Positions 3,194-26,913 of a DNA stretch of 48,594 nt are shown here, piece after piece. The position numbers and the translations under genes are program-made. The notes beneath the pieces were generated by a model. That model ran no database searches. It saw nothing but the letters and a program-made list of their open reading frames with translations, and was not told where the DNA came from. The stretch comes from Candidatus Woesearchaeota archaeon. GTDB lineage: Archaea > Nanobdellota > Nanobdellia > Pacearchaeales > GW2011-AR1. The DNA lies in contig CAZZGW010000001.1 in NCBI GenBank assembly GCA_964653605.1, positions 1-48,594 of the forward strand. Reading direction: 5' to 3'. The first letter of the stretch is position 1; each line of letters starts with the position of its first letter.

Positions 3194-3216
3194 ATTTTCT
3201 TTTTTTAAGAATTTAA

Positions 3217-5679: not shown

Positions 5680-5681
5680 AA

Positions 5682-6760: not shown

Positions 6761-6784
6761 AAACGCTCTTTAATTTTTATTAAA

Positions 6785-7649: not shown

Positions 7650-7961
7650 TTAATTGTTAGTATTAATTAAAGAAATATTTTCTAAGATTCTATATTTGAT
7701 TATATCTTTCTTTAGTAAATCTGATTTAGGGAAAATTCTTCTAGAATGATAATCAAGAAATAATTTGTTGTTTCCTGCATGCCTCAACTTCACTTTCTCG
7801 TCTGACAAACAAAGGAATTTTTGATAACTTACAGTATCAATTAGTCCAGAAGAATTAATTACTTCAATTTCACAATTAACTTTATACTCCACTAAATCTT
7901 TTTCTTCGATGCATCCTGTAAAAAGGAGAGGCATTATCAATGTTAATAAAAACTTTTTCAA
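7650..7961 (-). CDS. Hypothetical small lipoprotein (lipobox LFTG|C)
   Basis: TTG start. N-terminus MKKFLLTLIMPLLFTGC. 103 aa. Confidence 0.55.
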   Translation of the reverse strand: MKKFLLTLIMPLLFTGCIEEKDLVEYKVNCEIEVINSSGLIDTVSYQKFLCLSDEKVKLRHAGNNKLFLDYHSRRIFPKSDLLKKDIIKYRILENISLINTNN

Positions 7962-8042
7962 CTTTTTTTCCTTTCTTTATTTAAGTTAATACTCCTTTGG
8001 TTATATATTTTTCTGCTTAATGCAGATTATTTGTATCAAAGG

Positions 8043-8080
8043 AAGAAAAAAACCCTTCCAAAAAGTTTCAGAAGGGTTTT
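8043..8080 (-). terminator. Intrinsic-type hairpin plus T-run after ORF 8093..8308
   Basis: AAAACCCTTC-n12-GAAGGGTTTT, followed on the minus strand by a T run. Confidence 0.5.
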
Positions 8081-8092
8081 TGATAATTTAAT

Positions 8093-8308
8093 CTAAACAA
8101 TTACTTCCTCAATAGGTTTCCCTCTCTTAGGAACCTTGAACTTTGTTTCAAAGAGAGGATTATTCTGTCCTCTTACTTTTACTACAACACAGTATCCTAC
8201 TCCTTTCATACATTGAATGGAAAGGACTTCTCTTCTTTCTCTTGAAGGCAGGTTCAAAGTAAATTCTCCGTTTGAAACTCCTACCTCAATCAATCTAATT
8301 TTAAACAT
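8093..8308 (-). CDS. Hypothetical small beta-rich protein (paralog of 8330..8611)
   Basis: 71 aa. Shares the EFxLxLP....R+(V/I)(L/I)S(I/V) and K(R/S)GKP patterns with the next ORF. Confidence 0.55.
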   Translation of the reverse strand: MFKIRLIEVGVSNGEFTLNLPSRERREVLSIQCMKGVGYCVVVKVRGQNNPLFETKFKVPKRGKPIEEVIV

Positions 8309-8329
8309 ATTTTTCGTTTATTTAAGAAA

Positions 8330-8611
8330 TTAAAACTCACATAAATGGATAGTCCTACTGGGCTTTCCTGATTTAAAACACCCAACAACCCTGCAGGGAC
8401 CATCCTGAATTATTGTTCCGGCCTCAACTGCCCTGAATTTTATTCTTTGAGTTTCCTTTCTAGGATTCAATTTAACGGAAAGATAATACCTTCCTTCCTT
8501 TTCACCTTCCCCTTCTTCAACTGAAATTATCTTTCTTTGACTCACTTTGGGTAAATCCAAGAAAAATTCTCTTTTTAGCTCAATTTCGAATTTTTTAGTC
8601 TCTAATCGCAT
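8330..8611 (-). CDS. Hypothetical small beta-rich protein (paralog of 8093..8308)
   Basis: 93 aa: FEIELKREFFLDLPKVSQRKIISV...KSGKPSRTI. Confidence 0.55.
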   Translation of the reverse strand: MRLETKKFEIELKREFFLDLPKVSQRKIISVEEGEGEKEGRYYLSVKLNPRKETQRIKFRAVEAGTIIQDGPCRVVGCFKSGKPSRTIHLCEF

Positions 8612-8687
8612 TTTATTTTGTTTTAATTAAAAAATAGTGTGCATATATTATTCTGCCCAATATAAATTATTTTTGCCAGTTCAATAA

Positions 8688-8724
8688 TAAAAAGAAACCC
8701 CTTTCAAAAAGGGAAAGGGGTTTC
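8688..8724 (-). terminator. 12-bp-stem hairpin plus T-run after ORF 8751..9308
   Basis: GAAACCCCTTTC-n7-GAAAGGGGTTTC, perfect stem. T run follows on the minus strand. Confidence 0.55.
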
Positions 8725-8750
8725 AATCATTGCTAATTACTCAAATCATA

Positions 8751-9308
8751 TCAACCAGCCCATTCCGGTCTTATGAACATTTCATCACCGTTTTGATCCG
8801 TTACTTTAAAGTATCCATTTGCACCCTCAAAAAGAAGTGTTGGTACATGCTCATAAACAATATTTGGATCTGCGCATTCTTTTAACAGCCAAATTTCCAA
8901 ACCTTCTTTGTCGTCATTAAGATATTCGGGCAAATAGGAATACGGTAGTTGTGCTCCACTTGCAAACTTTATGACTACTGAGGGCAACAAATACTTCTTA
9001 ACATACTTTTCCTCCGCAGGATGAATAAACTTCACAGGAAATAAACTGACAGTAAAAGAGGATTGATTTAGACCTACCACTGTTCCGGGATCAACTTTTA
9101 CAGTTAACTTTTCTCCAGGATCCAATGCTTCTTCCAAACCAGAGGACGCATTCTTCAAAAATGCTGCTTCAGAGATATTCTCCACTTTCTGTACCTGTGG
9201 GGCCTCTTCAACAACAGTTTCTACTTTCTTTTTGCAACTTGTTCCCAAAACAATTGCAAGGATGCCTAAAAACACCCAGATCTTTTTTATCATCTTCATT
9301 GTTTTCAT
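8751..9308 (-). CDS. Hypothetical secreted lipoprotein (lipobox LGTS|C)
   Basis: MKTMKMIKKIWVFLGILAIVLGTSCKKK. GGAGGG SD 8 nt upstream. 185 aa. Confidence 0.65.
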   Translation of the reverse strand: MKTMKMIKKIWVFLGILAIVLGTSCKKKVETVVEEAPQVQKVENISEAAFLKNASSGLEEALDPGEKLTVKVDPGTVVGLNQSSFTVSLFPVKFIHPAEEKYVKKYLLPSVVIKFASGAQLPYSYLPEYLNDDKEGLEIWLLKECADPNIVYEHVPTLLFEGANGYFKVTDQNGDEMFIRPEWAG

Positions 9309-9415
9309 TTTTTTTACCCTCCATTTTTTTAATTAAACATAACGCGTTAACTTACACTTAAACAAAATTGACTACGCCTCCTTTCTTATTTAATAAATAA
9401 ATAATTCTAATTATC

Positions 9416-9535
9416 TCATTTTCTCTTTCTATGTCGAGAAATGATGATTGAGTATCCCCAGAAGAATATTACGGTCCCTAAAATCCAGGAAGCGTTTGAT
9501 TCTATTTTATCTAAGGCTCCAAAATGCCCCCTCAT
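9416..9535 (-). pseudogene. Truncated/frameshifted copy of the 58-aa membrane mini-ORF at 10406..10582
   Basis: My translation: MRGHFGALDKIESNASWILGTVIFFWGYSIIISRHRKRK. Lacks the first TM because of a 1-nt indel relative to the full copy. Confidence 0.4.
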
Positions 9536-9550
9536 CTTTTTCTTCAAGGT

Positions 9551-9588
9551 AAAAAAAGTCCCCGAAGGCTAACTCAAATGCTTGGGGG
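9551..9588 (-). terminator. Imperfect hairpin plus T7 run after ORF 9616..10308
   Basis: CCCCGAAG-n13-CTTGGGG. The A7 run on the plus strand gives T7 after the hairpin on the minus strand. Confidence 0.4.
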
Positions 9589-9615
9589 GCTTTTTGTAAA
9601 TTTCATTAATAGGAA

Positions 9616-10308
9616 TTAGGCGCTGGATGCAAGAATTCCAGCAAGAATCATCCAAATCCCCCACCCTCCTAATGCGGAGTAGATGTTTTTGGACTTTGCC
9701 ACCTTACTATAACATTCTAAATAATCTGGGTCTGAAAACTGATAACCCCTTGGCATTGGATCAATAATAACTGCAGGTATTAATGCAAAAACCCCAAAAA
9801 GCAACCCCCCAAGAAAATATCCTCCAGTACTATGTTTCCTTCTGGCATCCCTTGCTCCCCTTGCACAACTTTCCTGGGGATTCATGGCCATTTCCATTAA
9901 TGGAGCATCCCATTTACTCATAGGATCTTTAAAAGAATAATCTGCCACATCAGAAACCGGAATTTTATAGGTATTCCCATCTTCAGCCTTAAATGTTATG
10001 GTGCAATTTTTCACCTTCTTAATTTCCCCATTGAAATACAAGAAATCATTCGGGTCAACTAAAACTTCTCCCCCTTCCGAAGAGTATATGGAAATGGGTT
10101 CCAAATCATTATAAAAATAATCCTCGGGGGCATTTGCCACTTCTGCAGAATAATCTAAAACAGGATATAGAGCAATCACATCATTCATTTCAAATGATTT
10201 GTCACGATTTTTTGCACTTACATTCCCAACAATTCCCAATAATAAAAGAATGCTAAGGAAAGGTAAAAGATACGTCCACAAACTTCTTACTTTTTTCATT
10301 TTTTTCAT
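9616..10308 (-). CDS. Hypothetical secreted protein with C-terminal membrane anchor(s)
   Basis: Signal peptide ...LLLLGIVGNVSA|KN. C-terminal hydrophobic segments GGLLFGVFALIPAVII and GGWGIWMILAGILASSA. Confidence 0.65.
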   Translation of the reverse strand: MKKMKKVRSLWTYLLPFLSILLLLGIVGNVSAKNRDKSFEMNDVIALYPVLDYSAEVANAPEDYFYNDLEPISIYSSEGGEVLVDPNDFLYFNGEIKKVKNCTITFKAEDGNTYKIPVSDVADYSFKDPMSKWDAPLMEMAMNPQESCARGARDARRKHSTGGYFLGGLLFGVFALIPAVIIDPMPRGYQFSDPDYLECYSKVAKSKNIYSALGGWGIWMILAGILASSA

Positions 10309-10405
10309 GATTTTTTGTTTTTGTTTAACAATAAATTTAGAATTGGTCCTACTTTCTCCTCCTTTCTTGTAAGTTTTAAAACTTTAGTAATTAATTCTAA
10401 TTATC

Positions 10406-10582
10406 TCATTTTCTTTCTCTATGTCGAGAAATAATGATAGAATAACCCCAACACAATAGTACTGCTCCAAAAATCCCTGAAGCATTTGATTCTATTTTAT
10501 CTAAGGCCCAAAAGATTCCCCAGAGGATAAGAAAAATTCCTCCGACCATTATGGCTATCCCACAAGATAGATTGTTTTTCAT
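10406..10582 (-). CDS. Hypothetical 58-aa 2-TM mini-protein (below the ORF-track cut-off)
   Basis: My translation: MKNNLSCGIAIMVGGIFLILWGIFWALDKIESNASGIFGAVLLCWGYSIIISRHRERK. GGAGG 7 nt upstream of the ATG. Confidence 0.55.
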   Translation of the reverse strand: MKNNLSCGIAIMVGGIFLILWGIFWALDKIESNASGIFGAVLLCWGYSIIISRHRERK

Positions 10583-10596
10583 TGTTTACCTCCTTT

Positions 10597-10791
10597 CTAT
10601 GCTGCAAAGCCTACAAAGTTTTTATTTTCTCCAGGTCCCTTTCTTCCTTTCCCAGGACTCTTGTTTTTCCCCCTTTCGAAAGTTTTTCTTCCATGGGCAA
10701 TGAGCCTTGAAATCTTTTCGGCTTGAATATTTGGGTAAATTTCCCTTTTGTCTGAAATATGATTTATACATTGCATAATCATGCCCTCCAT
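10597..10791 (-). CDS. Hypothetical small basic protein
   Basis: 64-aa ORF with a K/R/G-rich C-terminus. No family recognised. Confidence 0.4.
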   Translation of the reverse strand: MEGMIMQCINHISDKREIYPNIQAEKISRLIAHGRKTFERGKNKSPGKGRKGPGENKNFVGFAA

Positions 10792-10856
10792 TGTTAAATT
10801 TGTTAAATTAGCTCATTAAAATAAAACTCTTGTGAAGAGAGTTTTTAGGTAGAGAA

Positions 10857-11987
10857 TTAAGTCTTAGCTCTTTTTTGCATATTTTTTCCCACATCCTCTT
10901 CCAGCTTCTTCTTCACTTTCTCCCACTTTTCGTACTCTAATGCCCTCAGTATGGGAAGCATCTTCAATTCATACGCATCTAACCGGTCATGGTGTTTTCT
11001 TACCCATTTTTGATATCCCATTATAAAGAGAATCGAAATGGCCAACAAAGCACCTCCAAACACTAAGAAAATCCAGGGATTGCCCATTATCCAACACTTA
11101 TGATTTATATACGGCAGAATCTTGCGTATAAACCCAAGTGATTTTTCAGTTGTTAATGCTGAATAATAAATTGTTGAAGCGAGTGTGAGCCATAGGAACA
11201 TATGTGCAAACTTGAAAGTATGCGTCTTTATACCTCCAAAAAAGGTATATATCCTGTAAGAGATATTTGAATTCCCCTCAAAGTGCCTCTTATTTACAAG
11301 ATGGATCCAAGAAGCAACCATCCCAAACTGAATGAATGTTACAACCCAATCCAAGGGGTTTCCATCCCTCGCCGGATTATTAAATGGATGCGTCCGGACC
11401 ATAATAAAAACTGGAAGTACATATGAAAGCCCATATAACCCTGCAAGATACCCAAGGATTTTTGCTCTCCTATTGTGGATTTTTAGCAATCTTTTGCCTT
11501 CACTTATCCTTCCCCAGAAAAGAGTGCCTGTATAACTTACTAAAGGTCCTAATCCCCCTATTGCCATGCCAACTCCAAATGTCAAAGGCATTGCCGCAAT
11601 AATGAATGTAAAAAGATTCCAAGTTATAAACTTAGAAAATATTACAAGACAAACCAACGAACCTGCAAAAAGTAAGTATGGCTTTTGATGCATAAAAGAA
11701 GAACCTCCCCTCCTCATGTAAATGCTAACTATTCTTTCATCTTCTGAAAGAAAGAGTTGTCGCATGAAGTGCATCCAAATTACTCCTAAATTTGAAATGC
11801 CCCATCCAAACCATGCAGAATACCAAAGAAACTTTCCATCCAGTTCTGGATCTCCTTTTTCAATGGCATAGTACAAGAATAAAAAGTTTGAGAGAATATA
11901 AACAAGGAGATAACTTCCCCTTAGGAAGTTTGCAAATCTTCTTCCTCTTTCTGCTTTTTCTTTAATGTATTCTACGGTATGTGTCAT
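10857..11987 (-). CDS. Hypothetical polytopic membrane protein (about 9-10 TM, apparent internal two-fold repeat)
   Basis: 376 aa. Two halves share the pattern DG(K/N)xL(W/D)...W(I/M)H...RI(V/Y)(S/T)...GG...F. C-terminal K/E helix. Confidence 0.65.
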   Translation of the reverse strand: MTHTVEYIKEKAERGRRFANFLRGSYLLVYILSNFLFLYYAIEKGDPELDGKFLWYSAWFGWGISNLGVIWMHFMRQLFLSEDERIVSIYMRRGGSSFMHQKPYLLFAGSLVCLVIFSKFITWNLFTFIIAAMPLTFGVGMAIGGLGPLVSYTGTLFWGRISEGKRLLKIHNRRAKILGYLAGLYGLSYVLPVFIMVRTHPFNNPARDGNPLDWVVTFIQFGMVASWIHLVNKRHFEGNSNISYRIYTFFGGIKTHTFKFAHMFLWLTLASTIYYSALTTEKSLGFIRKILPYINHKCWIMGNPWIFLVFGGALLAISILFIMGYQKWVRKHHDRLDAYELKMLPILRALEYEKWEKVKKKLEEDVGKNMQKRAKT

Positions 11988-12054
11988 CGTCTTTTGGTTT
12001 TAAGAAACCTCTCATTCTTGTAAAGAGAATTTTAGGTTTCAAATTATTGCTAAT

Positions 12055-13512
12055 TCATTTTAACTTTACAACCCTTGCAATCCGCAGATTATCTCCATTG
12101 AAAGAATGGTTCCTATCTAACACTGTCCACTCTCCATACTTATGAATTACAAATCCTACACGAATTACATCATTGAATTTTATTTCATCAAGAGATGAAT
12201 AATACATGAATGGTTTTCCATAGGTGCCGGTTTCATACCATACAACATCACTTTTCCCCTCAAGAACTTTTCCAGTAATGATAATTGCAGAACCATTTGA
12301 CCTCATGAAAATCAATTCAACTTTCCAAGTACTTCTGCTTCCAACATCAAGTTCAACAGCAGTTATTGCGCTTTCAGGAAATTCAGGAGTATAAAATTCA
12401 GCCCAATTTTCCCCATATTTGTGTAATACAACGGTTCCATTTCCTTCAGGAGAATTAATTTCATTTATAGAAATCAATCCTTCTTCAAAAAGATAACCTT
12501 TATCCCAATAGTGATGGCTATTATCTGGATGATTAAAATCATCTTGTATACTTGGAGCTGGAATAAAATTACTGCTTTCACAATCACACCCACACAAGAT
12601 AAAATTTGATATTACTTCATCTGGCTGATCAATTCCATCTCCATTATTATCAAAATACCAAATATACATGATTCCAGAACCCCCATCACAATCCCAATGT
12701 GAAAGGAAATTTATTGCATGAAGAGAAGGAGTTTCCCCATTCAATCCATTTTTAGGAATCTCAAATGCAATGGAATCTACAATAACTCCATCAACCTGGC
12801 TAAGGATAATAAATAAATCATCAAAAATATCAAAGGTTATACTAGGGGTTTGTCCATCTTTACCATTCAATCCATCCTGTCCATCTTCACCATCTTTACC
12901 ATTTGTTCCATGCCAAGTGATAAAACCTCCCTTGTATTCATCTCCTTCAGAAACTTTACCATCCCTATTCATATCCCAATACAGCCTGGTTTCGGTTCCA
13001 TATACTTCAATTTCCCCTGCATTATAAACCACTTCAACATATTCTGGAACAAGACTAAATCCTGACTCTCCTAATGGAATCTGTATTATTAAAGTCCCAA
13101 CAAGCTGATCTCCTTTATAGGATTTAGCAATTATGGAGCCTCCTGGAGAATCATCTGTTGGAGGTAAAGCTTCAAGACTCAAGCTTGCATCTAAACCATT
13201 TTTTCCATCTTTTCCATCCTGTCCATCTTCACCATCTTCACCATTTGTTCCATTAAAGAGAGTAAGACTATTATCAAATTTGTCTCCTTCTGTATAGTTT
13301 AAACTATAATCCATGTCTAAATAATAGCTTGTAGTATAACCAAGTAAAACTCCATCTGTTGAATAAACAGGATCTACTTTAGTTACAGAGGAATAGCCAT
13401 CTTTTCCATCCTGACCATCATCCCCGTCATGTACAAAAATATCTTCTGAGCATGACAACATGGCAAATGAAATTGCCAATAAAATTCCGAACACTTTAAC
13501 AAATGTTTTCAT
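12055..13512 (-). CDS. Secreted lipobox protein with three short collagen-like (G-X-Y) tracts and beta-rich domains
   Basis: MKTFVKVFGILLAISFAMLS|C; DGDDGQDGKDG; NGTNGEDGEDGQDGKDGKNG; HGTNGKDGEDGQDGLNGKDG. Confidence 0.75.
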   Translation of the reverse strand: MKTFVKVFGILLAISFAMLSCSEDIFVHDGDDGQDGKDGYSSVTKVDPVYSTDGVLLGYTTSYYLDMDYSLNYTEGDKFDNSLTLFNGTNGEDGEDGQDGKDGKNGLDASLSLEALPPTDDSPGGSIIAKSYKGDQLVGTLIIQIPLGESGFSLVPEYVEVVYNAGEIEVYGTETRLYWDMNRDGKVSEGDEYKGGFITWHGTNGKDGEDGQDGLNGKDGQTPSITFDIFDDLFIILSQVDGVIVDSIAFEIPKNGLNGETPSLHAINFLSHWDCDGGSGIMYIWYFDNNGDGIDQPDEVISNFILCGCDCESSNFIPAPSIQDDFNHPDNSHHYWDKGYLFEEGLISINEINSPEGNGTVVLHKYGENWAEFYTPEFPESAITAVELDVGSRSTWKVELIFMRSNGSAIIITGKVLEGKSDVVWYETGTYGKPFMYYSSLDEIKFNDVIRVGFVIHKYGEWTVLDRNHSFNGDNLRIARVVKLK

Positions 13513-13547
13513 AATTTCTGAATTTTGGTTTATTTTTATTAAATTAT

Positions 13548-14711
13548 TTATTTGGTTCTATTCAAATTTACTGATAGACAAATTTCTGTTGGAGAAATTA
13601 TATATTTCCCTTCCATCCTATGAAAATGCCAAGCTCTCCCAAATTCGGTTAAAGCCAATGTTCCTGCAACCCCTGCACCAATTCTTAGACCCATTATGGT
13701 GTTTGACTTTCGTTTTGCTGCAGAATTATCAGCAGGATAATCCCTAAACACTGGATGCCCCATTATTTCTGTTGTCCCATAAAGACCAAGCCCAATTCCG
13801 CTAAAAATTAATCCGTTGCGAAAGGACTTTTCTGTTTTTCTCCGATAGGGGTTTTCCCAATATTCTATAAATACATTATAACCTGAAATTACTGGGTTTA
13901 CAGGCATATTAAGCATATCCTGATATGTTACACTCTTCCTTAGAATTTCCCATGTCTGCTCGGGATTATCTTTTTTCATTACAACTTCTATAGAATCATC
14001 TTCAATTCTAGAAACAGGTCCAATTTCCCATTCATACTCTGCGGTTCTCATCCCCTTTTCAAACTCTTCAAAATCAAGCGTTTCTAAAATAGGAACAATA
14101 GAGTCTTTGAAAAAATTCCATTCGGATTCATTAACTCCTGAAAAAATAAACCTCCTAAAAAATTCGAGATAATTCTCAAGACATTCTTCACAATCGGCTT
14201 CAACTTCTATAATTTTGTCTTCAATTGTAACCTGGCTTGGAATATTAGAGGATTTGTTAACCATTGCAGCCTTAACCCTTGTTGCAGGATTTCCATTTTT
14301 TGTAGTCCTAGTAACAATCACTGCTGGTTTCTGATTTTCATACTTATCAAGGTGTTTCTGCTGGACTTCACGAATATCCTCCAAAAATCCGATTTCCATT
14401 TTCCGGTGCTTAACTTCTTTTTTCAGACAATCATTTTCTGCTTCCAATTGAACATTTTTAATCATTAATTCCTGCTTCGCTTTTTGCAGGTCATTGATAG
14501 TTTTAACCATCTTATCTCCTGAACACTTTGAAAAGAATAAGATTATTAATAGAAAAATAAACAGGACAATTGCTCCTGCTCTCCACCATTTCTTATTGGT
14601 GTTGTCAATCTCGCGCTGATTTTTTTCAGCTTTTAATTCCCACTTCAAAATCTCTACTTGCTCCTGAGAAGTCTTACCTTCGAGAATTTTGTTTAATTCA
14701 TCTTTTTTCAT
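13548..14711 (-). CDS. Hypothetical single-pass membrane protein with coiled coil and Gly-rich C-terminus
   Basis: TM WWRAGAIVLFIFLLIILFF. Coiled coil INDLQKAKQELMIKNVQLEAENDCLKKE. C-terminal GLIFSGIGLGLYG / GLRIGAGVAGTLA. Confidence 0.65.
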   Translation of the reverse strand: MKKDELNKILEGKTSQEQVEILKWELKAEKNQREIDNTNKKWWRAGAIVLFIFLLIILFFSKCSGDKMVKTINDLQKAKQELMIKNVQLEAENDCLKKEVKHRKMEIGFLEDIREVQQKHLDKYENQKPAVIVTRTTKNGNPATRVKAAMVNKSSNIPSQVTIEDKIIEVEADCEECLENYLEFFRRFIFSGVNESEWNFFKDSIVPILETLDFEEFEKGMRTAEYEWEIGPVSRIEDDSIEVVMKKDNPEQTWEILRKSVTYQDMLNMPVNPVISGYNVFIEYWENPYRRKTEKSFRNGLIFSGIGLGLYGTTEIMGHPVFRDYPADNSAAKRKSNTIMGLRIGAGVAGTLALTEFGRAWHFHRMEGKYIISPTEICLSVNLNRTK

Positions 14712-14814
14712 GGTTTTTAAAATTTAAATTTTTAATTTGTTTATGTTTTACTTGATTTTTTCAATATATGTTGTTCTGCTTCCATGGTCTGAGCATAATA
14801 TTTTTTCCAAAAGA

Positions 14815-14847
14815 AAGAACCTTCATTAGAAAGTCTAAAGAAGGTTC
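14815..14847 (-). terminator. 9-bp hairpin after ORF 14856..15224
   Basis: AGAACCTTC-n15-GAAGGTTCT. Confidence 0.4.
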
Positions 14848-14855
14848 TGTGATTG

Positions 14856-15224
14856 CTAAGCATAAATTTTATTCTTTGATTCTCCAATAGAATCATTTGT
14901 TATCTCATCTCTCTTCTTCAAAAGATTCTCTCTCCACACTTTTGTTTCAAGGGCAATTCTGAAAATCTCCTGGGACCTGTAATAAAGGTGATCCATTAAA
15001 CTATCCAACATCAAAAGATCCTTTATCATTGGAATTACTATTAAACAAAGATAGGGATCATAATCTACTTCAACAATGAAATCTCTGATTACAGAGTTAT
15101 CCTTTAGAAAGCATGCCCCAATTGAAACTGTAATTGGATCATTTTTTGATTCATGGATAAATTCAATAATCTCTGCATCAGATGCCCCTGATTCGGCAAT
15201 TAAAACTGCTAATTTAGAATTCAT
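14856..15224 (-). CDS. Hypothetical cytosolic protein
   Basis: 122-aa ORF in the co-oriented train. No family recognised. Confidence 0.5.
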   Translation of the reverse strand: MNSKLAVLIAESGASDAEIIEFIHESKNDPITVSIGACFLKDNSVIRDFIVEVDYDPYLCLIVIPMIKDLLMLDSLMDHLYYRSQEIFRIALETKVWRENLLKKRDEITNDSIGESKNKIYA

Positions 15225-15261
15225 ACTTTTCTCTTCCTTTTTAATTAATAATTAATTTTGA

Positions 15262-15597
15262 TTATCGCTTATACATATCTTCTTCAATCCTTTTAGAGGC
15301 ACGATTTTGGATGCCCGCAAAGATTAGCAAAATAGCAAAATGGAGATATGCAATTATACAGCCCACTACAAATCCTTTCCAAATAGAAGGAAATATTTCC
15401 TGATTTCCCATAAAGGAAAAATAAAGGAATGCAAGAACAAAAACAATTACCCCTGAAAAAACCGGGCTTGTGTGGATGCTCTTTATTTTAATCCAAATCC
15501 AGGGAAGCGCCAGATACCAAAATGCTCCTGCAAGATACTCAATTAACCATTTGGTTATCCGAAGGTTAAGCCTTAACTTTACCATAAATTTTTTCAT
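15262..15597 (-). CDS. Hypothetical 3-4 TM membrane protein
   Basis: 111 aa, hydrophobic throughout. Overlaps the upstream ORF by 4 nt. Confidence 0.55.
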   Translation of the reverse strand: MKKFMVKLRLNLRITKWLIEYLAGAFWYLALPWIWIKIKSIHTSPVFSGVIVFVLAFLYFSFMGNQEIFPSIWKGFVVGCIIAYLHFAILLIFAGIQNRASKRIEEDMYKR

Positions 15598-16154
15598 GGC
15601 TCCAAGATTAAAGGTTCAACCTTGGATACAAGCCCATCAAAATCAGAGTCTTTATACAATTTTGACCTGTTTGTCTCTACCAGAACAGAACCAAAACATA
15701 GTGAGAGGTTCTCAAGATGATATGTTACTTCAAAAGTTCCTGCCGGTTCATTATTTTCTTCGGATAAATTTCCTCCAATCAAAAGAACATCCCCCGATAA
15801 TGGAAAGATTATCCAAAATTTATTCCCAAAATTCCAGGAAATAAACCCTCTCCCTTTTTCCTTTTGTGCAAGGTCTTCCAATTCCTTTAAGGTAAACTTC
15901 TTGACATAGGAAGGCCTGTATTCTCCTTCTTCCCAAATTGTTATTAAAACAAGATTCTTACTTGGATCTTCCTTCAAGATTGTGTTGAAGTATAGAGAGG
16001 TTCCATATCCTTGATTTTCAAAGGATTCTGCTTTTCCAACCAAGCAGGGGGACATTTCAAAAACATATTCTCCTAAAATGTTTTTAATTATTTGCGCATC
16101 CGCATTAATTGTGAATGCAATAATTCCTAGCACTACAAGAATTAGATTTTTCAT
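15594..16154 (-). CDS. Hypothetical secreted protein
   Basis: Signal peptide MKNLILVVLGIIAFTINADA|Q. 186 aa. Confidence 0.6.
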   Translation of the reverse strand: MKNLILVVLGIIAFTINADAQIIKNILGEYVFEMSPCLVGKAESFENQGYGTSLYFNTILKEDPSKNLVLITIWEEGEYRPSYVKKFTLKELEDLAQKEKGRGFISWNFGNKFWIIFPLSGDVLLIGGNLSEENNEPAGTFEVTYHLENLSLCFGSVLVETNRSKLYKDSDFDGLVSKVEPLILEP

Positions 16155-16190
16155 CTTTTCTCTTTTTTTGTTTTTAATTAATATTTATGT

Positions 16191-16445
16191 TTATTTTCTA
16201 TATGCTATTTTGTTTTCAATAAACAAAACTAATCTCAACAGAACTAAAACCATAAGGTAAGTAAAGAATATGGCTAATCCAAAAGAGACATTTGGATGTA
16301 TTGACCAGGATTCAAACCCTCCAACTATAAAGTTAAAAAATCCCAAGATTAATTTTCCAATTTTTTGAGAAACCAATCCCAAACTAACAAGCAATGTCCA
16401 CAAGGATACTGCTATCCATAACATTCTAAAGGTTTTTCTTTTCAT
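16191..16445 (-). CDS. Hypothetical 3-TM mini membrane protein
   Basis: 84 aa, hydrophobic. Confidence 0.5.
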   Translation of the reverse strand: MKRKTFRMLWIAVSLWTLLVSLGLVSQKIGKLILGFFNFIVGGFESWSIHPNVSFGLAIFFTYLMVLVLLRLVLFIENKIAYRK

Positions 16446-16457
16446 CTTTTCTTGGAT

Positions 16458-16940
16458 TTAATTACTCGTTGTTATTTTCTTTTTTCCCTCTCTTACACCT
16501 AAAATTGAGGAAACCACAAATCCCCCAAATAAAAGTATTATTGATGATGTGACTACCCAATTAATATGGATTGTTTCAAAGAAACCATTTCCTCTCAGAA
16601 GAGAAGAAATCATAACGCCTAAAAAGATTATTACTATAGCTAAAAAAGGTAAGGCCATTCCCAGTGCCACCTTATTTGCAAATTCATTCCTGAAATTATC
16701 AAAATGAATTCCTTTTTCTTCACAAGATTCATTCAGGAAATCAATAAAGAAAATGCTTCCAAGGAATGCTTCCAAACAACCTACAAAAAAGCCAAACACA
16801 TTCCAAAGGTCTGAAGGTTTTCCTATTTCTCCTAAGAATAATCCTTGAAAGAAATCTATTCTTTTAAACAGCATATAAATTACTGTTGCAAAGAAAAATA
16901 TTGCCAAACTTAGATTTATTATTTTTTCTGTTCTTTTCAC
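16458..16940 (-). CDS. Hypothetical 4-TM membrane protein
   Basis: 160 aa with four hydrophobic segments. Confidence 0.55.
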   Translation of the reverse strand: MKRTEKIINLSLAIFFFATVIYMLFKRIDFFQGLFLGEIGKPSDLWNVFGFFVGCLEAFLGSIFFIDFLNESCEEKGIHFDNFRNEFANKVALGMALPFLAIVIIFLGVMISSLLRGNGFFETIHINWVVTSSIILLFGGFVVSSILGVREGKKKITTSN

Positions 16941-17076
16941 AATTTCTAAGATTTAAATTTAATTATTTATTTTATTTTTCTCTATATCTTGATTCGCTTC
17001 TTACTAAGCGAATTATTATCTCCAATTTAAAGTCAAGCGTATCAAGCCCTGACTCCAACCAACTTCACATGTTGAG

Positions 17077-17313
17077 TTATTCACTTTCATAAATAACTTC
17101 ACATTTTTTATTGAAAACCTTATTAACAACATCCAAAGGAATTGATGAGGCAGATGCCAAGCACCCTTTTTCAAAAGAACCTGTAAAAGCATCCAAGACA
17201 ATTACCTTGTCTCCTACTTTAGATAATTTTCCAACCTCTTGCTTCTTCATTCCATATTGCTCATAATGAACAATAACCCAATCTCCTACATAATTTTTCA
17301 TCTTGTTTTTCAT
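17077..17313 (-). CDS. Hypothetical small cytosolic beta-rich protein
   Basis: 78 aa: GDWVIVHYEQYGMKKQEVGKLSKVGDKVIVLD (SH3/KOW-like feel only). Confidence 0.45.
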   Translation of the reverse strand: MKNKMKNYVGDWVIVHYEQYGMKKQEVGKLSKVGDKVIVLDAFTGSFEKGCLASASSIPLDVVNKVFNKKCEVIYESE

Positions 17314-17364
17314 GATTTATAAAATTTAATAAATATTAATATTGATTTTACTGGATTTTTTACA

Positions 17365-17556
17365 TTATTTTACTTTGTTTCTCTTTTTATCAATCTTATT
17401 GAATATTCTAATCCCTATAAGGATCATAATGAGTAGGATAAGTAATCCAATGGCAATTCCAAAATTGAGGAGTGCTCCATTGATTATTCCGACTATTGCG
17501 ATTATTGCACAAAGGGGAATGGCTGCTTGACGAATAAATTCTCTTAAGGTTTCCAT
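17365..17556 (-). CDS. Hypothetical 2-TM mini membrane protein (first gene of the membrane-protein train)
   Basis: 63 aa. AT-rich TATA-like region and the GAAATACC array lie upstream. Confidence 0.5.
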   Translation of the reverse strand: METLREFIRQAAIPLCAIIAIVGIINGALLNFGIAIGLLILLIMILIGIRIFNKIDKKRNKVK

Positions 17557-17611
17557 CTCGATTTTTATTTAGTTTATGTTGATTTATTTGTTATATTATT
17601 AATATATTAAA

Positions 17612-17687
17612 ACAGGGTATTTCCTGTGTAATTTCAGTGTATTCCGAGGTTATTTCGGGGTATTTCATGTGTGAAATAAGTGTATTT
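17612..17687 (-). promoter_or_regulatory. Phased array of 5 GAAATA(C)C boxes upstream of the membrane-protein train
   Basis: Minus strand reads catGAAATACCccGAAATAACCtcgGAATACACtGAAATTACacagGAAATACCctg, box spacing 9-12 nt, about 55-130 nt upstream of ATG 17556. Confidence 0.5.
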
Positions 17688-17875
17688 GTAATTCTATTGA
17701 TAGAAATTCTTAAGCACTCTAAAGCGAGTTGCTTCTTTTGTATCTTGTGGTTGTTAATCCAACTTCAAGACTAAGAGTTCAATGCGTTACATAACCTATT
17801 ATTAATCTTACCTTGTTGTTCCTTTCGTTTTATTGATTGATTGGAAATTTGGTTTGACTAATGTGCGGGGGTGTA

Positions 17876-19963
17876 TTAATTGATGTTCTCTAAGGGTTGT
17901 GTTTGTGATTTATTTAATGAATTTGATAACCTGATGAACTTTTTCCAGCCGGTTTTACTTTTTTGTTCTTCTACTGCTACTACTTCTTTTTCCATTAGTT
18001 TATTCTTGAGAGAATTCCCTTTTCTTGCTGAGAATCCCATGTTCTTGTAAAGTTCAACAGTACTGTAATTGTGATTTGGAAATTCCATTAAGAAACTTAA
18101 AAATATTTTTTCTTCATCTTCAAAGTTATCTAAGAATGCTTGATCTAGCTTTTCTTGATTTTCTTGTATTTCTTTTTCTGTATCTATTTCTGAAAATTCT
18201 ACAACTGGCTGATTTAATTGTTCACTTATTACTTTGCTCATTACAATTAAAACATCTTCAGAAGTGTAACCATTTTTGTTTACTCCAGATTCTAATACTT
18301 TTTCTATGTTCTTTAAGTCATGGCCTTTTGCCATTTCTTCTTTTACAAAACTAAAAAGCACTCCTTGAGAGTATTCTGGATCATAAACTTCATCTTCAGT
18401 TATTCCAGAGATTTCACTTTCCTGTGTATTTTGAGGTATTTCACCTATTTCACTGTGTGGGTGTTCCAGGGTTCTTTCATGTTCTTTCAATTTAGAAATA
18501 CCCCATTTACTATGTTCCGCTTCCTGTTCAATTGTTATTGCATCCATAAATTCTGGATCTTCCCTTTCGGCTTCAATTCCTTGCATTATTGCATCTGCTC
18601 TTGAAGTTATTTTCTCGTCTGAAATCGATTGTTCTGTTAGTGCCATATAGGGGGTTTTAACTAAGAATGGGAGGGTATATCTTTCTGATAACTTAACAAC
18701 TGCAGACCCAACTTTCAACTGGGAGAATGCTTCTTTCTTTTGGTGTAATTGGGTTATGGAGCTTATATCGTAAATATCTTGGGGTAATTGCTGTTGGAAT
18801 GCTACGTGGCATGCGCTATTTCCCTTTACTGTATCTGATAACTTTGAAATATGTTGGTCTAAACAAATAAGGCTAGTCCCATATTCCCTCATTTCCCTAT
18901 AAGCCATATCTGTAATTGATTCTGAGATAAAATTTGTTTTATCTTTTAAGAAAACATTGTGTGCTTCATCAACTAAAATTGCATAATCAAAATCCCCATT
19001 AGATTTGTGTGGGGAGGCTTTCTTTTGTTTGTAAATATATGTTAAAACGAACTCGCAAAAGAATTTCTTTTCTATGTTTCCTAAGGAATTTAACTCGAAT
19101 ACAGCCCTTTTATTGAATAAATCTTCAACAGACAAGCTTTTCTTACCTTCATAATTTATTACGTTTCCAAATGCTCCAAAAGTTAAAACTGAGGCTATTC
19201 TTAATGCACTTTCAAGCCACTCAGACTCTCTTCCTCTTGCATCTCTTGCTTTTTGTTCAAGCATTTTCTTAACATGTAACCAATTAGGATAATGTCTTTT
19301 TTCTTCTGGAAGTTTGTAAATATCCCATCCTTCAAAAATCTCATCAAGAGTTTCTAAAAGAATTTTATGAACACCAAATGAAGCTGAGAAACTTTCAGTA
19401 AGCAAATCTGCTAAAACATTAATCCATTCTTTTGGTGCAACTCCTTTTGGAGGAACATTAATATTTGTTTTGAATAAATTTGCAACTGAATCATTTCCAA
19501 TTGTAAAAACCATTAAACTTGGATCCACATTCACAAGGGGACGGAAACTTCTTTTCCAATCAAAGACTAAAAAAGGTTTGTCTTTTCCAATAAAGTTTTC
19601 AAGAATATTAAATGCAAAATTTGTTTTACCAGAACCACTCATACCAGTAATACAAACGTGTCTTGGCCAATCTTTTTCATTTAATCCAAAAGTGTATAAT
19701 TCTTTATCTGCATAAATTATATTCCCAAGAGGGTATTCCCCTATTATTTCCGATTGTTTTGGAGGTTCTAAAAGTAAACTTTGATCTAAAAGTTTGTTAA
19801 GATTTTTTTGATAAAGTAAAGTTATAACTTGCAAAATTTCATTTTTTTCTTCCAATGAATTTGCTACAGCGTATTGGGCATAAATTCTATCAATTTTTTC
19901 TCCAAAAAAAGGTTTTAATTTTCTACACATATCTTCAACTGTTAGACTTCTTTGATTCATCAT
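17876..19963 (-). CDS. FtsK/HerA-superfamily P-loop ATPase with acidic linker and C-terminal winged-helix domain
   Basis: Walker A RHVCITGMSGSGKTN. FLVFDWKRSF. Walker B YAILVDEAHNVF. REYGTSLICLDQH. C-terminal IFLSFLMEFPNHNYSTVELYKNMGFSARKGNSLKNKLMEKEVV. Confidence 0.8.
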   Translation of the reverse strand: MMNQRSLTVEDMCRKLKPFFGEKIDRIYAQYAVANSLEEKNEILQVITLLYQKNLNKLLDQSLLLEPPKQSEIIGEYPLGNIIYADKELYTFGLNEKDWPRHVCITGMSGSGKTNFAFNILENFIGKDKPFLVFDWKRSFRPLVNVDPSLMVFTIGNDSVANLFKTNINVPPKGVAPKEWINVLADLLTESFSASFGVHKILLETLDEIFEGWDIYKLPEEKRHYPNWLHVKKMLEQKARDARGRESEWLESALRIASVLTFGAFGNVINYEGKKSLSVEDLFNKRAVFELNSLGNIEKKFFCEFVLTYIYKQKKASPHKSNGDFDYAILVDEAHNVFLKDKTNFISESITDMAYREMREYGTSLICLDQHISKLSDTVKGNSACHVAFQQQLPQDIYDISSITQLHQKKEAFSQLKVGSAVVKLSERYTLPFLVKTPYMALTEQSISDEKITSRADAIMQGIEAEREDPEFMDAITIEQEAEHSKWGISKLKEHERTLEHPHSEIGEIPQNTQESEISGITEDEVYDPEYSQGVLFSFVKEEMAKGHDLKNIEKVLESGVNKNGYTSEDVLIVMSKVISEQLNQPVVEFSEIDTEKEIQENQEKLDQAFLDNFEDEEKIFLSFLMEFPNHNYSTVELYKNMGFSARKGNSLKNKLMEKEVVAVEEQKSKTGWKKFIRLSNSLNKSQTQPLENIN
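18408..18463 (-). repeat. Intragenic GTGAAAT(A/C) box array inside the ATPase linker-coding region
   Basis: Minus strand reads GTGAAATAGGTGAAATACCtcAAAATACacaggaaaGTGAAATC and encodes HSEIGEIPQNTQESEIS. Confidence 0.5.
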
Positions 19964-20406
19964 TTTAATTCCCCTTCCCTATCAAGAATTTTTTGAAGTT
20001 TAGAGGGAACGAAATACTTTACATCCATTGTTTTAAGATATTCTTCAGAATTTCTAATTGAACTATCCACCTCATCAAAAGAAGCACTTTTACTAAAATC
20101 TCCTTGAGCCCTTCTTCTTTCTGCAACTTGTAGAGGATTTACGTGAGTAACGACTCCTGCGTGGAAAGGAGCTTTACCCTCGGCAATATGTTTTGAGAAC
20201 CAACCAACAAGATATCCTCTTTCTGGTTTTTCAGATTCTTGAAGCCCTTCAAGAACTTCTTCTGAACCGTATCTTTGAACAAACTCATCTTTAGTCCTTT
20301 CCAAAGCTACATAAAGCGCTGTTCCAAGAGAATTTGAAGTTCCACTTGATTCTACGGATTTTATTTTTCCTTCCATTTCTCTGTAAAATCTTGTTTTTGC
20401 TTTCAT
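19960..20406 (-). CDS. Hypothetical protein, translationally coupled to the ATPase (4-nt overlap)
   Basis: 148 aa. No family recognised. Confidence 0.6.
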   Translation of the reverse strand: MKAKTRFYREMEGKIKSVESSGTSNSLGTALYVALERTKDEFVQRYGSEEVLEGLQESEKPERGYLVGWFSKHIAEGKAPFHAGVVTHVNPLQVAERRRAQGDFSKSASFDEVDSSIRNSEEYLKTMDVKYFVPSKLQKILDREGELK

Positions 20407-20873
20407 TATGCTGCTTTAGCAAAATCCCCTTGAGAGTATCTTACTAATTGATTTACTTTTTCTTGAGGAATAGTTTTTCTTAATCCTTTATCTAGAATTT
20501 TCAAAAGGTTAGTTGCGTTTTCTTTTAACTCAACTTCAAGGGATTCTTTCAATTCTTTCTCAGTTGGATTGCTAAAATATTCTCTTGTCTTAACAGTTGC
20601 TTTGTAAAAATTATCTACACCATTGAACATTTCTAATGACTTTATCAACGCAGATTCATTAGCAATTCTTACTAGGTTGCTTGTATCTTCAACTTCCTCT
20701 CCAGTGTATTGTTTTCTCATTTCCAGGTCATATCCAAGAGTCATTCCGGTGAATATTTCTGCAGTTTGTAAATTGAAGCATCCTCTAGCTTCTGCTTTAA
20801 GGTATTTCCCATATTCTTCAGCATTCATTTCCTTTGTTTCTTTATCTGATTTCATCTTAATTTTCCTCATCAA
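20406..20873 (-). CDS. Hypothetical protein (operon member)
   Basis: 155 aa. 1-nt overlap with the downstream ORF. Confidence 0.6.
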   Translation of the reverse strand: MMRKIKMKSDKETKEMNAEEYGKYLKAEARGCFNLQTAEIFTGMTLGYDLEMRKQYTGEEVEDTSNLVRIANESALIKSLEMFNGVDNFYKATVKTREYFSNPTEKELKESLEVELKENATNLLKILDKGLRKTIPQEKVNQLVRYSQGDFAKAA

Positions 20874-21309
20874 GCAATTTATTTATTGAATTTACTCTTT
20901 CTTCTTTTTCACTTAATTCTTGTTCTTGGGACCTAAGTTCTTTCTTAAGTAAAGCTACATCTTTCCAAGAATCAATTTTTTCTTTCATTTGAATTTCAGA
21001 GATTTCTATCTTTTTTGTTCTAAGTAAGTTCTTTTCTTTCATCAAATCCGCTTTTTCAAACTCAGTAGTATTTTCATTTTCTAAAAGGAAGTTATTAATT
21101 TCAGTCTTAACTGACTCTCCTTCTTTAATGAAGTTTTCGCTAAGCTCTTCTCTTTCATTTATCAAAATTCCTATGTCTTTGACAGAGTCTTTCAAGGCAT
21201 TAATTTTGGCTAGGCCTATCTTTGTCAGATCAGAGCCCGAGCTAGTTATTTCAGGTTTTTCAAAGCTTATTACGGGTTTTCCACCCTTTAAAAGATCACT
21301 TATTTCCAT
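20857..21309 (-). CDS. Hypothetical coiled-coil protein (first gene of the ATPase operon)
   Basis: 150 aa, K/E/L heptad-like. TTTATAAAG about 25 nt upstream of the ATG. Confidence 0.6.
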   Translation of the reverse strand: MEISDLLKGGKPVISFEKPEITSSGSDLTKIGLAKINALKDSVKDIGILINEREELSENFIKEGESVKTEINNFLLENENTTEFEKADLMKEKNLLRTKKIEISEIQMKEKIDSWKDVALLKKELRSQEQELSEKEERVNSINKLLDEEN

Positions 21310-21425: not shown

Positions 21426-21458
21426 GCGGAGTTGCCGGAGTGGTCAGACTCAGAATCA
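21426..21458 (+). pseudogene. Partial duplicate of the tRNA-Leu 5' region
   Basis: GCGGAGTTGCCGGAGTGGTCA (21/21 identical to 21500-21520), then GACTCAGAATC (compare GACTCAAAATC of the anticodon arm). No T-arm or 3' acceptor. Confidence 0.6.
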
Positions 21459-21499
21459 AAATTCTGGTGCTATCCCCCTCCAACCCAAAAAAACAGAAT

Positions 21500-21583
21500 G
21501 CGGAGTTGCCGGAGTGGTCAAACGGGACGGACTCAAAATCCGTTAGCTTAGTGCTTACACAGGTTCGAACCCTGTACTCCGCA
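21500..21583 (+). tRNA. tRNA-Leu (anticodon CAA)
   Basis: Acceptor GCGGAGT/ACTCCGC, anticodon stem ACGGA/TCCGT with loop CTCAAAA, long variable arm, T-arm ACAGG TTCGAAC CCTGT. Confidence 0.85.
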
Positions 21584-21756
21584 TATATTCTTTTAGATGG
21601 TGATAATAAATATAAAGGAAATTTTTCTATTTATGAAATATGGGAAGATTAAATGGCTTGGAAACAAGAATCTTTGGGGAGCTTATTTCTGAAGAAAATC
21701 CGGAAAGATATCTTGAAAAACAAGCTCTTTTAAAGAAAATTTAAGGAAAAATATAA

Positions 21757-21783
21757 GTGAAATACCCGAAATACCTTGAAATC
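21757..21783 (+). promoter_or_regulatory. GAAATACC box array upstream of ORF 21834..22109
   Basis: GTGAAATACCcGAAATACCttGAAATC followed by TATATTAAAAAA. Inverted relative to the 17.6-kb array, so it has the same orientation relative to its downstream gene. Confidence 0.5.
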
Positions 21784-26878: not shown

Positions 26879-26913
26879 TATTATAAAAGCAAATTATTTT
26901 ACTTATCAACGCC

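Follow-up and report, generated by a model that had tools for sequence, protein, structure and literature searches.

In the conjugation systems of actinomycetes, the clt region is located at or just past traB. The TraB motor, of hexameric type and of the FtsK/HerA superfamily, recognises direct 8-bp repeats in clt through its C-terminus, and the spd genes are 3–7 small genes in dense operons, mostly for membrane "spread" proteins too diverse to be assigned between elements, among them SpdB2, a membrane protein with four transmembrane (TM) segments and a coiled-coil region (PMC4447253). In archaea, the components of the crenarchaeal DNA-import systems Ced (CedA/A1/A2/B/D/E, known from Sulfolobales) and Ted (TedA/B/C) are mutually unrecognisable by sequence (PMC9905601, PMC11868833), and in Thermus thermophilus it is a soluble, membrane-associated HerA-like hexameric ATPase, the TdtA of ICEth1, that drives DNA donation (PMC5365140). 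Hypervariable loci are also known in archaea, namely the cell-wall island of Haloquadratum, an envelope island (PMC4535781), and the VARTIG module of Thermococcales (PMC8416519). The locus that we describe here lies in a 48,594-nt stretch of DNA from Candidatus Woesearchaeota archaeon (GenBank assembly GCA_964653605.1, contig CAZZGW010000001.1), the whole of which we call the window, and which belongs to an archaeal chromosome of the Woese/Pacearchaeota type with a G+C content of ~32%. Its rpoD-rpl18e interval of 14.7 kb, largely coded on the strand opposite to these genes, contains a train of small co-oriented open reading frames (ORFs; 7650-17556), a 320-nt spacer with an array of 8-mers of the GAAATACC type, and a four-gene ATPase operon (17876-21309) whose products are three proteins of 150, 155 and 148 amino acids (aa) and a 695-aa ATPase. 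The main feature of the locus is this hypervariable train standing beside a very conserved ATPase, a combination suggestive of a hitherto undescribed apparatus at the cell surface or for DNA transfer.

Judged by analogy, TraB-clt-Spd would be the closest analogue in logic, with Ced/Ted and TdtA coming next, and the locus appears to be a member of neither TraB-clt-Spd nor Ced. Its likeness to the actinomycete system consists of a motor predicted to end in a winged helix, an 8-mer array and a train of diverse small membrane proteins; unlike that system, its ATPase is of the HerA/VirB4 clade instead of FtsK and has no N-terminal membrane anchor, the module is vertically inherited on an archaeal chromosome and not carried by a plasmid (such as pSVH1 or pIJ101) or an actinomycete integrative and conjugative element (AICE), no sequence similarity to TraB or Spd was detected, and binding of the array by the ATPase is only putative. 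With Ced and Ted, the locus shares a HerA/VirB4-like ATPase, a polytopic membrane protein, 2-TM mini-proteins and a chromosomal location. In contrast to Ced, however, the ATPase has neither a VirB4-type N-terminal domain nor a TM segment, and CedD, its best NCBIfam match, reaches 54 bits against a cut-off of 600 and covers the P-loop region only (residues 79-149); furthermore, Ced genes are conserved within orders, whereas the train is not conserved even among close relatives, and Ced has no winged-helix domain or repeat array. Pfam, NCBIfam and PHROG gave no similarity to CedA/VirB6 or CedA1/VirB2 in the train, bearing in mind that Ced components are undetectable across orders by sequence. 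As for type IV secretion systems (T4SS), the window encodes no VirD4, VirB6 or relaxase domain, and the VirB4 C-domain is one of many HerA-clade matches of the ATPase. TdtA and HerA-NurA have the same ATPase fold in a soluble protein, but the present locus has no adjacent NurA, restriction or methylase genes, no predicted HAS-barrel, and is not on a mobile element. With the Haloquadratum island and VARTIG it has in common the conserved flanks, the fast turnover of content, the unknown secreted and membrane proteins and the apparent shuffling of alleles, while in these two neither a conserved ATPase of the HerA type nor phased repeats accompany the variable region, and VARTIG is centred on a large Ig-domain protein that is absent here. 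In our survey of the literature on DPANN HerA, DUF87 and FtsK proteins and on hypervariable islands of Woese/Pacearchaeota, the coverage of which is incomplete, we found no account of the ATPase, the motif or the island, nor did we find one in a 2026 preprint on 208 complete Nanobdellota genomes (bioRxiv 10.64898/2026.05.13.725050).

A hypervariable train coupled to a conserved ATPase

The coupling of the train (below also called the island, together with its counterparts in other genomes) to the ATPase was followed through related loci. Among 58 species-level loci, hydrophobic segments are found in 62% of the first six ORFs after the ATPase against 16% of the six upstream ORFs (Fisher p=4e-34), and at least three of the first six post-ATPase ORFs are hydrophobic in 46 of these 58 loci, compared with 2 of 48 on the upstream side. 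With 75 loci, a hydrophobic segment is present in 56% of the island ORFs vs. 23% of the flank ORFs, and 84% of the island ORFs are co-oriented with the ATPase (82-91% in the 58-locus comparison). The membrane-rich train is also kept in 18 of the 25 loci that have no ribosomal neighbours, where the border is formed by a phosphoenolpyruvate (PEP)-synthase-type gene, and therefore the train travels with the ATPase and not with the ribosomal operon. In the 18 closed loci, where both ribosomal borders are in reach, the position between rpoD and tRNA-Leu/rpl18e is constant, and the ATPase-rpoD island measures from 2.1 to 10.4 kb, that of the window being the largest.

The content of these islands turns over to an extreme degree. 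BLAST groups the 873 island ORFs into 716 families, 644 of which have a single member, and profile iteration still leaves 634 singletons; a homolog in another locus exists for 28% of the island ORFs vs. 86% of the flanking ORFs, and only about 1 in 8 of 150 island proteins of at least 100 aa has any Pfam match, several of these being housekeeping genes of the border. In close relatives (loci L001, L087 and L088) the ATPase is 84%, 77% and 73% identical, whereas the proteins that form the backbone of the train, namely those of 186, 387, 485, 185 and 103 aa, are only 25-50% identical with their order kept, and the small TM ORFs are unique to each genome of this comparison. A check of co-conservation proposed in an earlier sequence-only reading of the window gave detectable train homologs that are clustered in the same order, not scattered. 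The identity of the 485-aa protein rises as that of the adjacent ATPase falls, with values of 33% (L001), 40% (L087) and 50% (L088), and these reversed values suggest either an exchange of island alleles between lineages or a very strong diversifying selection. Taken together, the conserved flanks, the variable content and the enrichment in secreted and membrane proteins are those of a hypervariable cell-envelope island.

The train itself comprises 19 ORFs, all on the minus strand and covering ~90% of the region in the ORF listing, with lengths of 103, 71, 93, 185, 43, 230, 58, 64, 376, 485, 387, 51, 122, 111, 186, 84, 160, 78 and 63 aa, of which the 64-aa and 51-aa ORFs are doubtful as genes. 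A Kyte-Doolittle scan placed hydrophobic segments in 12 of 18 train proteins; the small TM proteins are those of 58, 63 and 84 aa (2 TM each), 111 aa (2-3 TM) and 160 aa (4 TM), the 122-aa protein has one weak TM segment, and the 43-aa ORF is a truncated copy of the 58-aa ORF. Signal peptides are present in the proteins of 103, 185, 485, 230 and 186 aa, the first three of which also have lipoboxes (FTGC, GTSC and MLSC, respectively). Pfam, NCBIfam and PHROG assigned the train proteins to no known family, with no meaningful match. The sequence-only reading had counted about 19 co-oriented minus-strand ORFs downstream of the ATPase operon, five or more signal peptides, a coiled-coil single-pass protein and a 376-aa polytopic protein with an internal repeat, with no component recognisable by sequence, and on all these points we agree with it; its count of at least eight small TM proteins, on the other hand, has to be lowered to 6-7.

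From the ATPase side, the first ORF of the train encodes the 63-aa protein, a 2-TM hairpin by hydropathy (17365..17556), which has no homolog among near relatives. In 35 of 73 loci, the first three ORFs of the train include a hydrophobic one of 45-95 aa, and a common 2-TM family at the head of the train was considered and rejected, since these hydrophobic ORFs share no motif. The proximal train that follows (14856..17313) shows the fastest turnover and encodes proteins of 78 aa (soluble), 160, 84, 186 (secreted), 111 and 122 aa with no Pfam match. In L001, L003, L087 or L088, recognisable counterparts exist only for the 186-aa protein, at 25-29% identity, and for a portion of the 122-aa one. 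Then comes the 387-aa membrane-anchored coiled-coil protein (13548..14711), a backbone protein with a single strong TM segment (residues 40-69) followed by the coiled coil, with weak FtsL/DivIC/YabA matches at residues 47-106; it is syntenic in L001, L087 and L088 at 44-46% identity, and a metagenome scan with it returned a sole 2-kb contig with a partial match (residues 1-86) of 100% identity. Next to it, the gene of the 485-aa acidic lipoprotein (12055..13512) contains repeats with a 9-nt period, and its product combines three collagen-like G-x-y blocks with a ~190-aa domain at the C-terminus. Its match to Pfam Collagen (8e-5) is under the family cut-off, its weak matches to phage tail-fibre PHROG families are limited to the collagen-like stretches, and the protein is likely a surface fibre or adhesin.

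The 376-aa polytopic membrane protein (10857..11987, by hydropathy) has halves that self-align weakly (22% over 125 aa, E=0.12). Half-size homologs of it exist, P0122 corresponding to residues 168-362 and both P0124 and P0126 to residues 6-150, and elsewhere it appears as adjacent split genes, of 243+167 aa in L001 and 261+201 aa in the P0002 locus. We therefore read it from these alignments as a fusion of two related units of ~165-200 aa, with an internal repeat that would be real but old, because the half-size homologs exist as separate proteins. Against 5.8 billion proteins it found itself alone, with six matches among 1.84 billion representatives.

The distal train (8751..10582) encodes the 58-aa protein (2 TM), a 230-aa protein with a signal peptide and two C-terminal TM segments, the 43-aa ORF and the 185-aa lipoprotein. 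It contains a tandem duplication of ~990 bp (9302-9523 vs. 10293-10513, with a core at 9398-9523 vs. 10388-10513 that is 84% identical over 126 nt), which yielded the truncated 43-aa copy ahead of the 185-aa lipoprotein gene and is direct evidence of ongoing local rearrangement. The 185-aa lipoprotein (47% identity in L087) is a member of the island family with the widest distribution, seen in 12 loci; its homology search gave three matches. Structure prediction with Foldseek, another check proposed beforehand, succeeded for the ATPase, leading to HerA, DndH and VirB4, and failed for this lipoprotein, whose AlphaFold2 (AF2) model from three sequences is unusable at a predicted local distance difference test (pLDDT) score of 41. 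A terminator-like hairpin with a 12-bp stem and a T run (8694..8724) ends this long transcription unit. In the island tail (7650..8611), the soluble, basic 93-aa and 71-aa ORFs (8093-8611) are paralogs (32% identity, E=7e-4) and form their own short unit flanked by two strong terminator-like hairpins, the second one at 8048-8081 within the tail, and the 103-aa lipoprotein is 24-33% identical in L087 and L088. With hairpins and T runs at both 8694-8724 and 8048-8081, the train would comprise three transcription units or more. An integron-like cassette array was considered and rejected, as no attC-like repeats recur between the train ORFs.

As a separate observation, the islands of other species contain genes whose products are reminiscent of outer-membrane proteins of bacteria, with matches to Pfam OMP_b-brl of up to 1.7e-6, close to the threshold, including the ORFs at L026:7108-7896, L011:14474-15244, L001:16722-17198, L014:14415-15101 and L030:15908-16747, and further island matches are to TonB_C (one, 1e-23), CarbopepD_reg_2, DUF5018, LysM and N_methyl. 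Signal peptides and lipoboxes look Bacteroidetes-like. Such features are unexpected in archaea and may have been acquired from bacterial partners.

The ATPase operon and the phased 8-mer array

The 695-aa soluble ATPase (17876..19963, minus strand) is a hexameric-type P-loop motor of the HerA/VirB4 clade. It matches Pfam DUF87 (6e-9) and Zot (6.5e-6), with FtsK_SpoIIIE reaching only E=0.08, its Walker A (GMSGSGKT) and Walker B (VDEAHN) motifs are invariant among 40 homologs, and hydropathy gives no TM segment. In the AF2 model (pLDDT 79), the N-terminus consists of a helical bundle and a beta-hairpin with no HAS-barrel predicted, and an acidic disordered linker precedes the predicted C-terminal winged helix (~residues 616-680, pLDDT 72-91, topology H-H-H-strand-strand), in which a putative recognition helix, S-x-R-K-G-N, is nearly invariant; the winged-helix sequence has no match in the PDB. 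Foldseek places the model close to Sulfolobus HerA (4d2i, 1e-13), DndH-C (target-normalised template-modelling score, TMt, of 0.76) and VirB4 (4ag5, TMt 0.67, at rank 34), and also to TdpA and SIR2-HerA structures, with viral ATPases being structurally no closer than cellular HerA. Detectable homologs number 979; the top 120 align over their full length at 54% identity or more, come from contigs as long as 291 kb, and carry the labels Nanobdellota, Woese- or Pacearchaeota. A scan with one genome per species found relatives of the ATPase in 191 genomes, with operon identities of 50-85%, and the ATPase and p150, the product of the first operon gene, are under strong purifying selection across these species.

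p150 is a 150-aa coiled-coil protein (20857..21309, minus strand) with no Pfam family match, and it adjoins the ATPase in nearly all of the 75 loci, with identities of 83% (L001), 80% (L003) and 74% (L088), falling to 48-52% in distant loci. Between p150 and the ATPase, two accessory soluble ORFs on the same strand (19960..20873), of 155 aa (20406-20873) and 148 aa (19960-20406), are translationally coupled with overlapping start and stop codons and are not paralogous to each other. They are missing from L003, the P0002 locus and L088, while in L001 their place is taken by a single unrelated ORF of 144 aa (L001:9570-10004), so that the intervening ORFs vary although the genes flanking them are 73-84% identical.

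The spacer between the operon and the train is ~90% identical in the window, L001 and L003, whereas the train proteins there are only 27-46% identical. From the ATPase stop codon to the array, it contains a conserved non-coding block with two or three hairpins (17680..17800, minus strand), which folds as RNA with z=-5.0 and has no Rfam match; another clade has analogous hairpins with few compensatory changes and weak covariation. A structured RNA was rejected as an explanation of the spacer, given the missing Rfam match, an RNAalifold covariation term of about zero and five compensatory pairs only. The array itself (17613..17690, minus strand) begins with an inverted half-site (TTATTTC), followed by five direct copies spaced 10-12 nt, for which Tandem Repeats Finder reports a period of 21. 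Across 78 loci, the exact 8-mer GAAATACC occurs 4.9 times per kb in the spacer vs. 0.087 per kb elsewhere, which is a 57-fold enrichment, with 126 copies on the ATPase strand vs. 15 on the opposite one, and a composite head TATTTC-N4-9-GRAATA is present in 24 of these 78 loci vs. 0.006 per 600 nt elsewhere. The distances between copies peak at 10-11, 21-23 and 30-32 nt, that is, with ~10.5-bp phasing, and this helical spacing would put the sites on the same side of the double helix and so speaks for a DNA site bound by protein more than for an RNA motif.

A TATA-like box (TTTTAATATATTAATAATATAAC; 17590..17612, minus strand) abuts the last 8-mer, ~35-55 nt 5' of the first train ORF, and is the putative train promoter. 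Two smaller sets of sites are found elsewhere in the window: one of GAAATACC, GAAATACC and GAAATC (21759..21783, plus strand), which abuts the TATA-like box of the 91-aa ORF/L18e operon, and a single GAAATACC copy (3001-3008, minus strand), which abuts the TATA box of tRNA-Leu(AAG). In the 75 loci, residues ~645-658 of the ATPase define two clades, S-x-RKGN vs. RKGT. In the RKGN clade, direct 8-mer arrays and ribosomal synteny are usual, while the RKGT clade has few direct copies, mainly inverted GAAATACC...GGTATTTC pairs, and a PEP-synthase-type gene as its downstream border. We suggest keeping in mind that this co-variation of recognition helix and motif follows a single phylogenetic split, and we have rejected it as independent evidence.

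Chromosomal setting

The locus is bordered by two ribosomal clusters on the plus strand, S13-S4-S11-RpoD (4604-7486) on the rpoD side and L18e-L13-S9 (22214-23399) on the opposite one. Within the interval, the plus strand contains the 91-aa ORF and tRNA-Leu(CAA) (21499..21584), a conserved divergent neighbour that marks the boundary of the module on the L18e side and keeps an identical position in 11 of 11 ribosomal-synteny loci tested. The common gene order in relatives is Xer, S9-L13-L18e, tRNA-Leu(CAA), p150...ATPase, unknown ORFs, and RpoD-S11-S4-S13. The window also codes for 5S rRNA, four tRNAs, SecD/F, a Xer-like recombinase, a Trp/Tyr-type (class Ib) tRNA synthetase, Cdc6/Orc1 and both PolD subunits. 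Cdc6/Orc1 (31529-32743) lies just past the lowest-G+C kilobase of the window (26%, at 31-32 kb) and is accompanied by the small (32749-34320) and large (34884-38393) subunits of PolD; a replication origin is probably located near 31-32 kb, ~10 kb from the ATPase operon, and in L005 too Cdc6 lies ~10 kb from the ATPase. Away from the locus, Rfam calls a tRNA of 127 nt (2751-2877, minus strand, 47 bits) that is absent from the ARAGORN output and is probably an intron-containing tRNA, adjoining tRNA-Leu(AAG) and the stand-alone 5S rRNA gene (3081-3195), and at 26846-27808 a 24-32-nt repeat (TTGTTCACTTAGGTTAAGTTAGTT) occurs in three copies, 460 and 476 nt apart, amid small ORFs.

This setting bears on the idea of an ancient element, either conjugative or a membrane-containing virus, that integrated at tRNA-Leu(CAA) and is now decaying or domesticated, with the ATPase as its former transfer or packaging motor. 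In its favour, the module runs antisense to the S13-S4-S11-RpoD / L18e-L13-S9 cluster and splits it, it abuts tRNA-Leu(CAA) in all syntenic loci, and an exact 21-nt copy of the 5' end of this tRNA is found 74 nt upstream of the gene (21426-21446 vs. 21500-21520), trailed by a degenerate anticodon-arm-like stretch; this copy may be a relic of a past integration or recombination at tRNA-Leu(CAA). ORFan small membrane proteins are likewise typical of archaeal mobile elements, and the ATPase has weak PHROG and BFVD similarity to packaging ATPases. However, no direct repeats were found flanking 7.6-21.4 kb, and the only integrase-family gene is the Xer-like one, which occupies the same place in all relatives, and for these two reasons a current mobile element at the tRNA was rejected. 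No viral structural, replication, relaxase or defence-effector domain is encoded in the window, no capsid or other viral hallmark was found in the locus, where the PHROG matches are generic P-loop or collagen-like ones, and a scan of IMG/VR with the ATPase profile found no viral contig that encodes a relative. The membrane-containing virus that the sequence-only reading had offered as one option did not hold up: an integrated virus of this type (PRD1-, sphaerolipovirus- or pleolipovirus-like) finds no support, given the position fixed across species, the missing capsid, the lack of an IMG/VR match and an ATPase of 695 aa with a predicted winged helix, where such a virus would have a small packaging ATPase of the A32/FtsK type. 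Neither is a defence system indicated: PADLOC gave weak HerA and mad8 matches on the ATPase alone and nothing on its neighbours, and no NurA, SIR2, DUF4297 or Dnd partner was found beside the ATPase.

Readings of the locus

We favour, tentatively and with a probability of roughly 0.4, a chromosomally fixed envelope module under diversifying selection that is coupled, by regulation or by mechanics, to a DNA-binding HerA-type motor that recognises the array. On this reading, the train would encode the envelope parts (anchor, conduit and adhesin) of a cell-contact apparatus, and exposure to hosts, competitors or viruses would drive the strong diversification and turnover of these parts. Binding of the phased 8-mer array would fall to the winged helix of the ATPase or to another factor, and the factor so bound might control the train promoter or load the motor on origin-proximal DNA, with the motor then moving DNA or another macromolecule through the envelope complex. 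The data show the anatomy, the conservation of both ATPase and array, the phasing, the physical coupling of a membrane-protein-rich train to the ATPase, and the hypervariability, whereas the array binder, the joint work of the ATPase and the train proteins, and a translocated cargo are what we infer. The predicted winged helix together with the phased array makes a DNA-handling role more plausible. The DNA-exchange analogy of the sequence-only reading, drawn "in logic only", fares accordingly only in part: the HerA/VirB4-clade motor, its coupling to the train and the array speak for it, while no Ced, Ted or T4SS part was found beyond the generic ATPase fold.

Several points weigh against this reading. 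No train protein matches VirB6/CedA, VirB2/CedA1, Spd or other known transfer components, and the ATPase has no membrane anchor and no partner that links it to the membrane. A conserved machine normally has conserved membrane subunits, and there are none here beyond close relatives. Furthermore, the train is minimal or missing in L062, L067 and L072, all of which have the ATPase, and closed islands can be as short as 2-3 kb; the ATPase, therefore, does not need a large train. The gap of ~320 nt with its own promoter-like element makes co-transcription of the train and the ATPase unlikely, and the further 8-mer copies, which abut the TATA boxes of both tRNA-Leu(AAG) and the 91-aa ORF/L18e operon, are what one would see with a common binding site for a transcription factor, leaving the binding of the array by the ATPase putative.

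Much of this also feeds the first rival, in which the island and the ATPase are functionally unrelated: a flexible envelope island of surface and membrane proteins under diversifying selection would sit in a permissive recombination hotspot next to an origin-proximal p150-ATPase-array system for chromosome handling, working in centromere-like segregation, in segregation of the FtsK/KOPS type, or as a regulator of neighbouring genes. The proximity of Cdc6 and PolD (~10 kb in the window, and the same distance for Cdc6 in L005) agrees with it, as do the housekeeping-like conservation of the ATPase (50-85% identity, with relatives in 191 species genomes), the species that have the ATPase with a very small island or none, the promoter-like element and terminators that the train has of its own, and the precedent of hypervariable envelope islands in other archaea, such as the Haloquadratum cell-wall island (PMC4535781). 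Nevertheless, 46 of 58 loci, from two different synteny contexts, have the membrane-rich train after the ATPase, which across such divergence makes a chance adjacency hard to sustain, and the array is located exactly at the putative train promoter, so that we regard unrelated parts as rather unlikely. Somewhat less likely still, at the opposite end, is the boldest form of our favoured reading, namely a universal, chromosomally fixed, origin-proximal DNA-transfer module of Woese/Pacearchaeota-type DPANN, in which the winged helix of a HerA-type motor would load on a clt-like phased GAAATACC array and a rapidly diversifying set of envelope conduits and adhesins would be encoded just downstream.

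In the type VII secretion loci of firmicutes, a variable region lies downstream of EssC, and by this analogy the locus could serve inter-microbial conflict or the distinction of self from non-self, if the conserved ATPase were a motor or served secretion and the genes after it coded for polymorphic effectors and for small immunity proteins of the membrane. The extreme turnover, the allele identities uncoupled from that of the ATPase, the local duplications and truncated copies, the hypervariable accessory ORFs even within the ATPase operon and the many tiny TM proteins, which are typical of immunity genes, would all be accounted for, and the polymorphic-toxin-like VARTIG of Thermococcales shows that archaeal hypervariable modules exist (PMC8416519). 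But neither the train of the window nor 150 island proteins of other species gave a match to a toxin, nuclease, peptidase or WXG/LXG-type domain, and the soluble ATPase, with one ATPase domain and a winged helix of DNA-binding type, does not have the EssC architecture; a conflict locus is more doubtful still than the readings above. Least of all do we believe in the ancient integrated element, which besides its missing flanking repeats, fixed Xer-like gene, and lack of capsid, replication gene and IMG/VR relative is at odds with the strong purifying selection on the ATPase and p150 in 191 species genomes, so that these two genes are not decaying, and with the closer structural match of the ATPase to cellular HerA than to viral ATPases.

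Most of the membrane proteome of the ultra-small, host-dependent DPANN archaea is unannotated. The locus provides a testable handle on how these archaea attach to their partners and obtain DNA, lipids and metabolites from them, consisting of one conserved ATPase, one phased DNA motif, GAAATACC, and a species-variable set of envelope genes. If the DNA-transfer form of the favoured reading were true, the module would mediate an exchange of chromosomal DNA that depends on cell contact, or the uptake of macromolecules such as host DNA. Archaea would then have an equivalent of the TraB conjugation of actinomycetes and, next to Ced and Ted, a third DNA-exchange system. In the case that the three parts do not cooperate, the locus would still yield a marker for a recurrent hypervariable envelope island and a likely new sequence-specific HerA-family DNA motor close to the replication origin. 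If, instead, the three parts cooperate, the locus would be a candidate for what determines the choice of host or partner, or the exchange of DNA, in an uncultured lineage of very large size.

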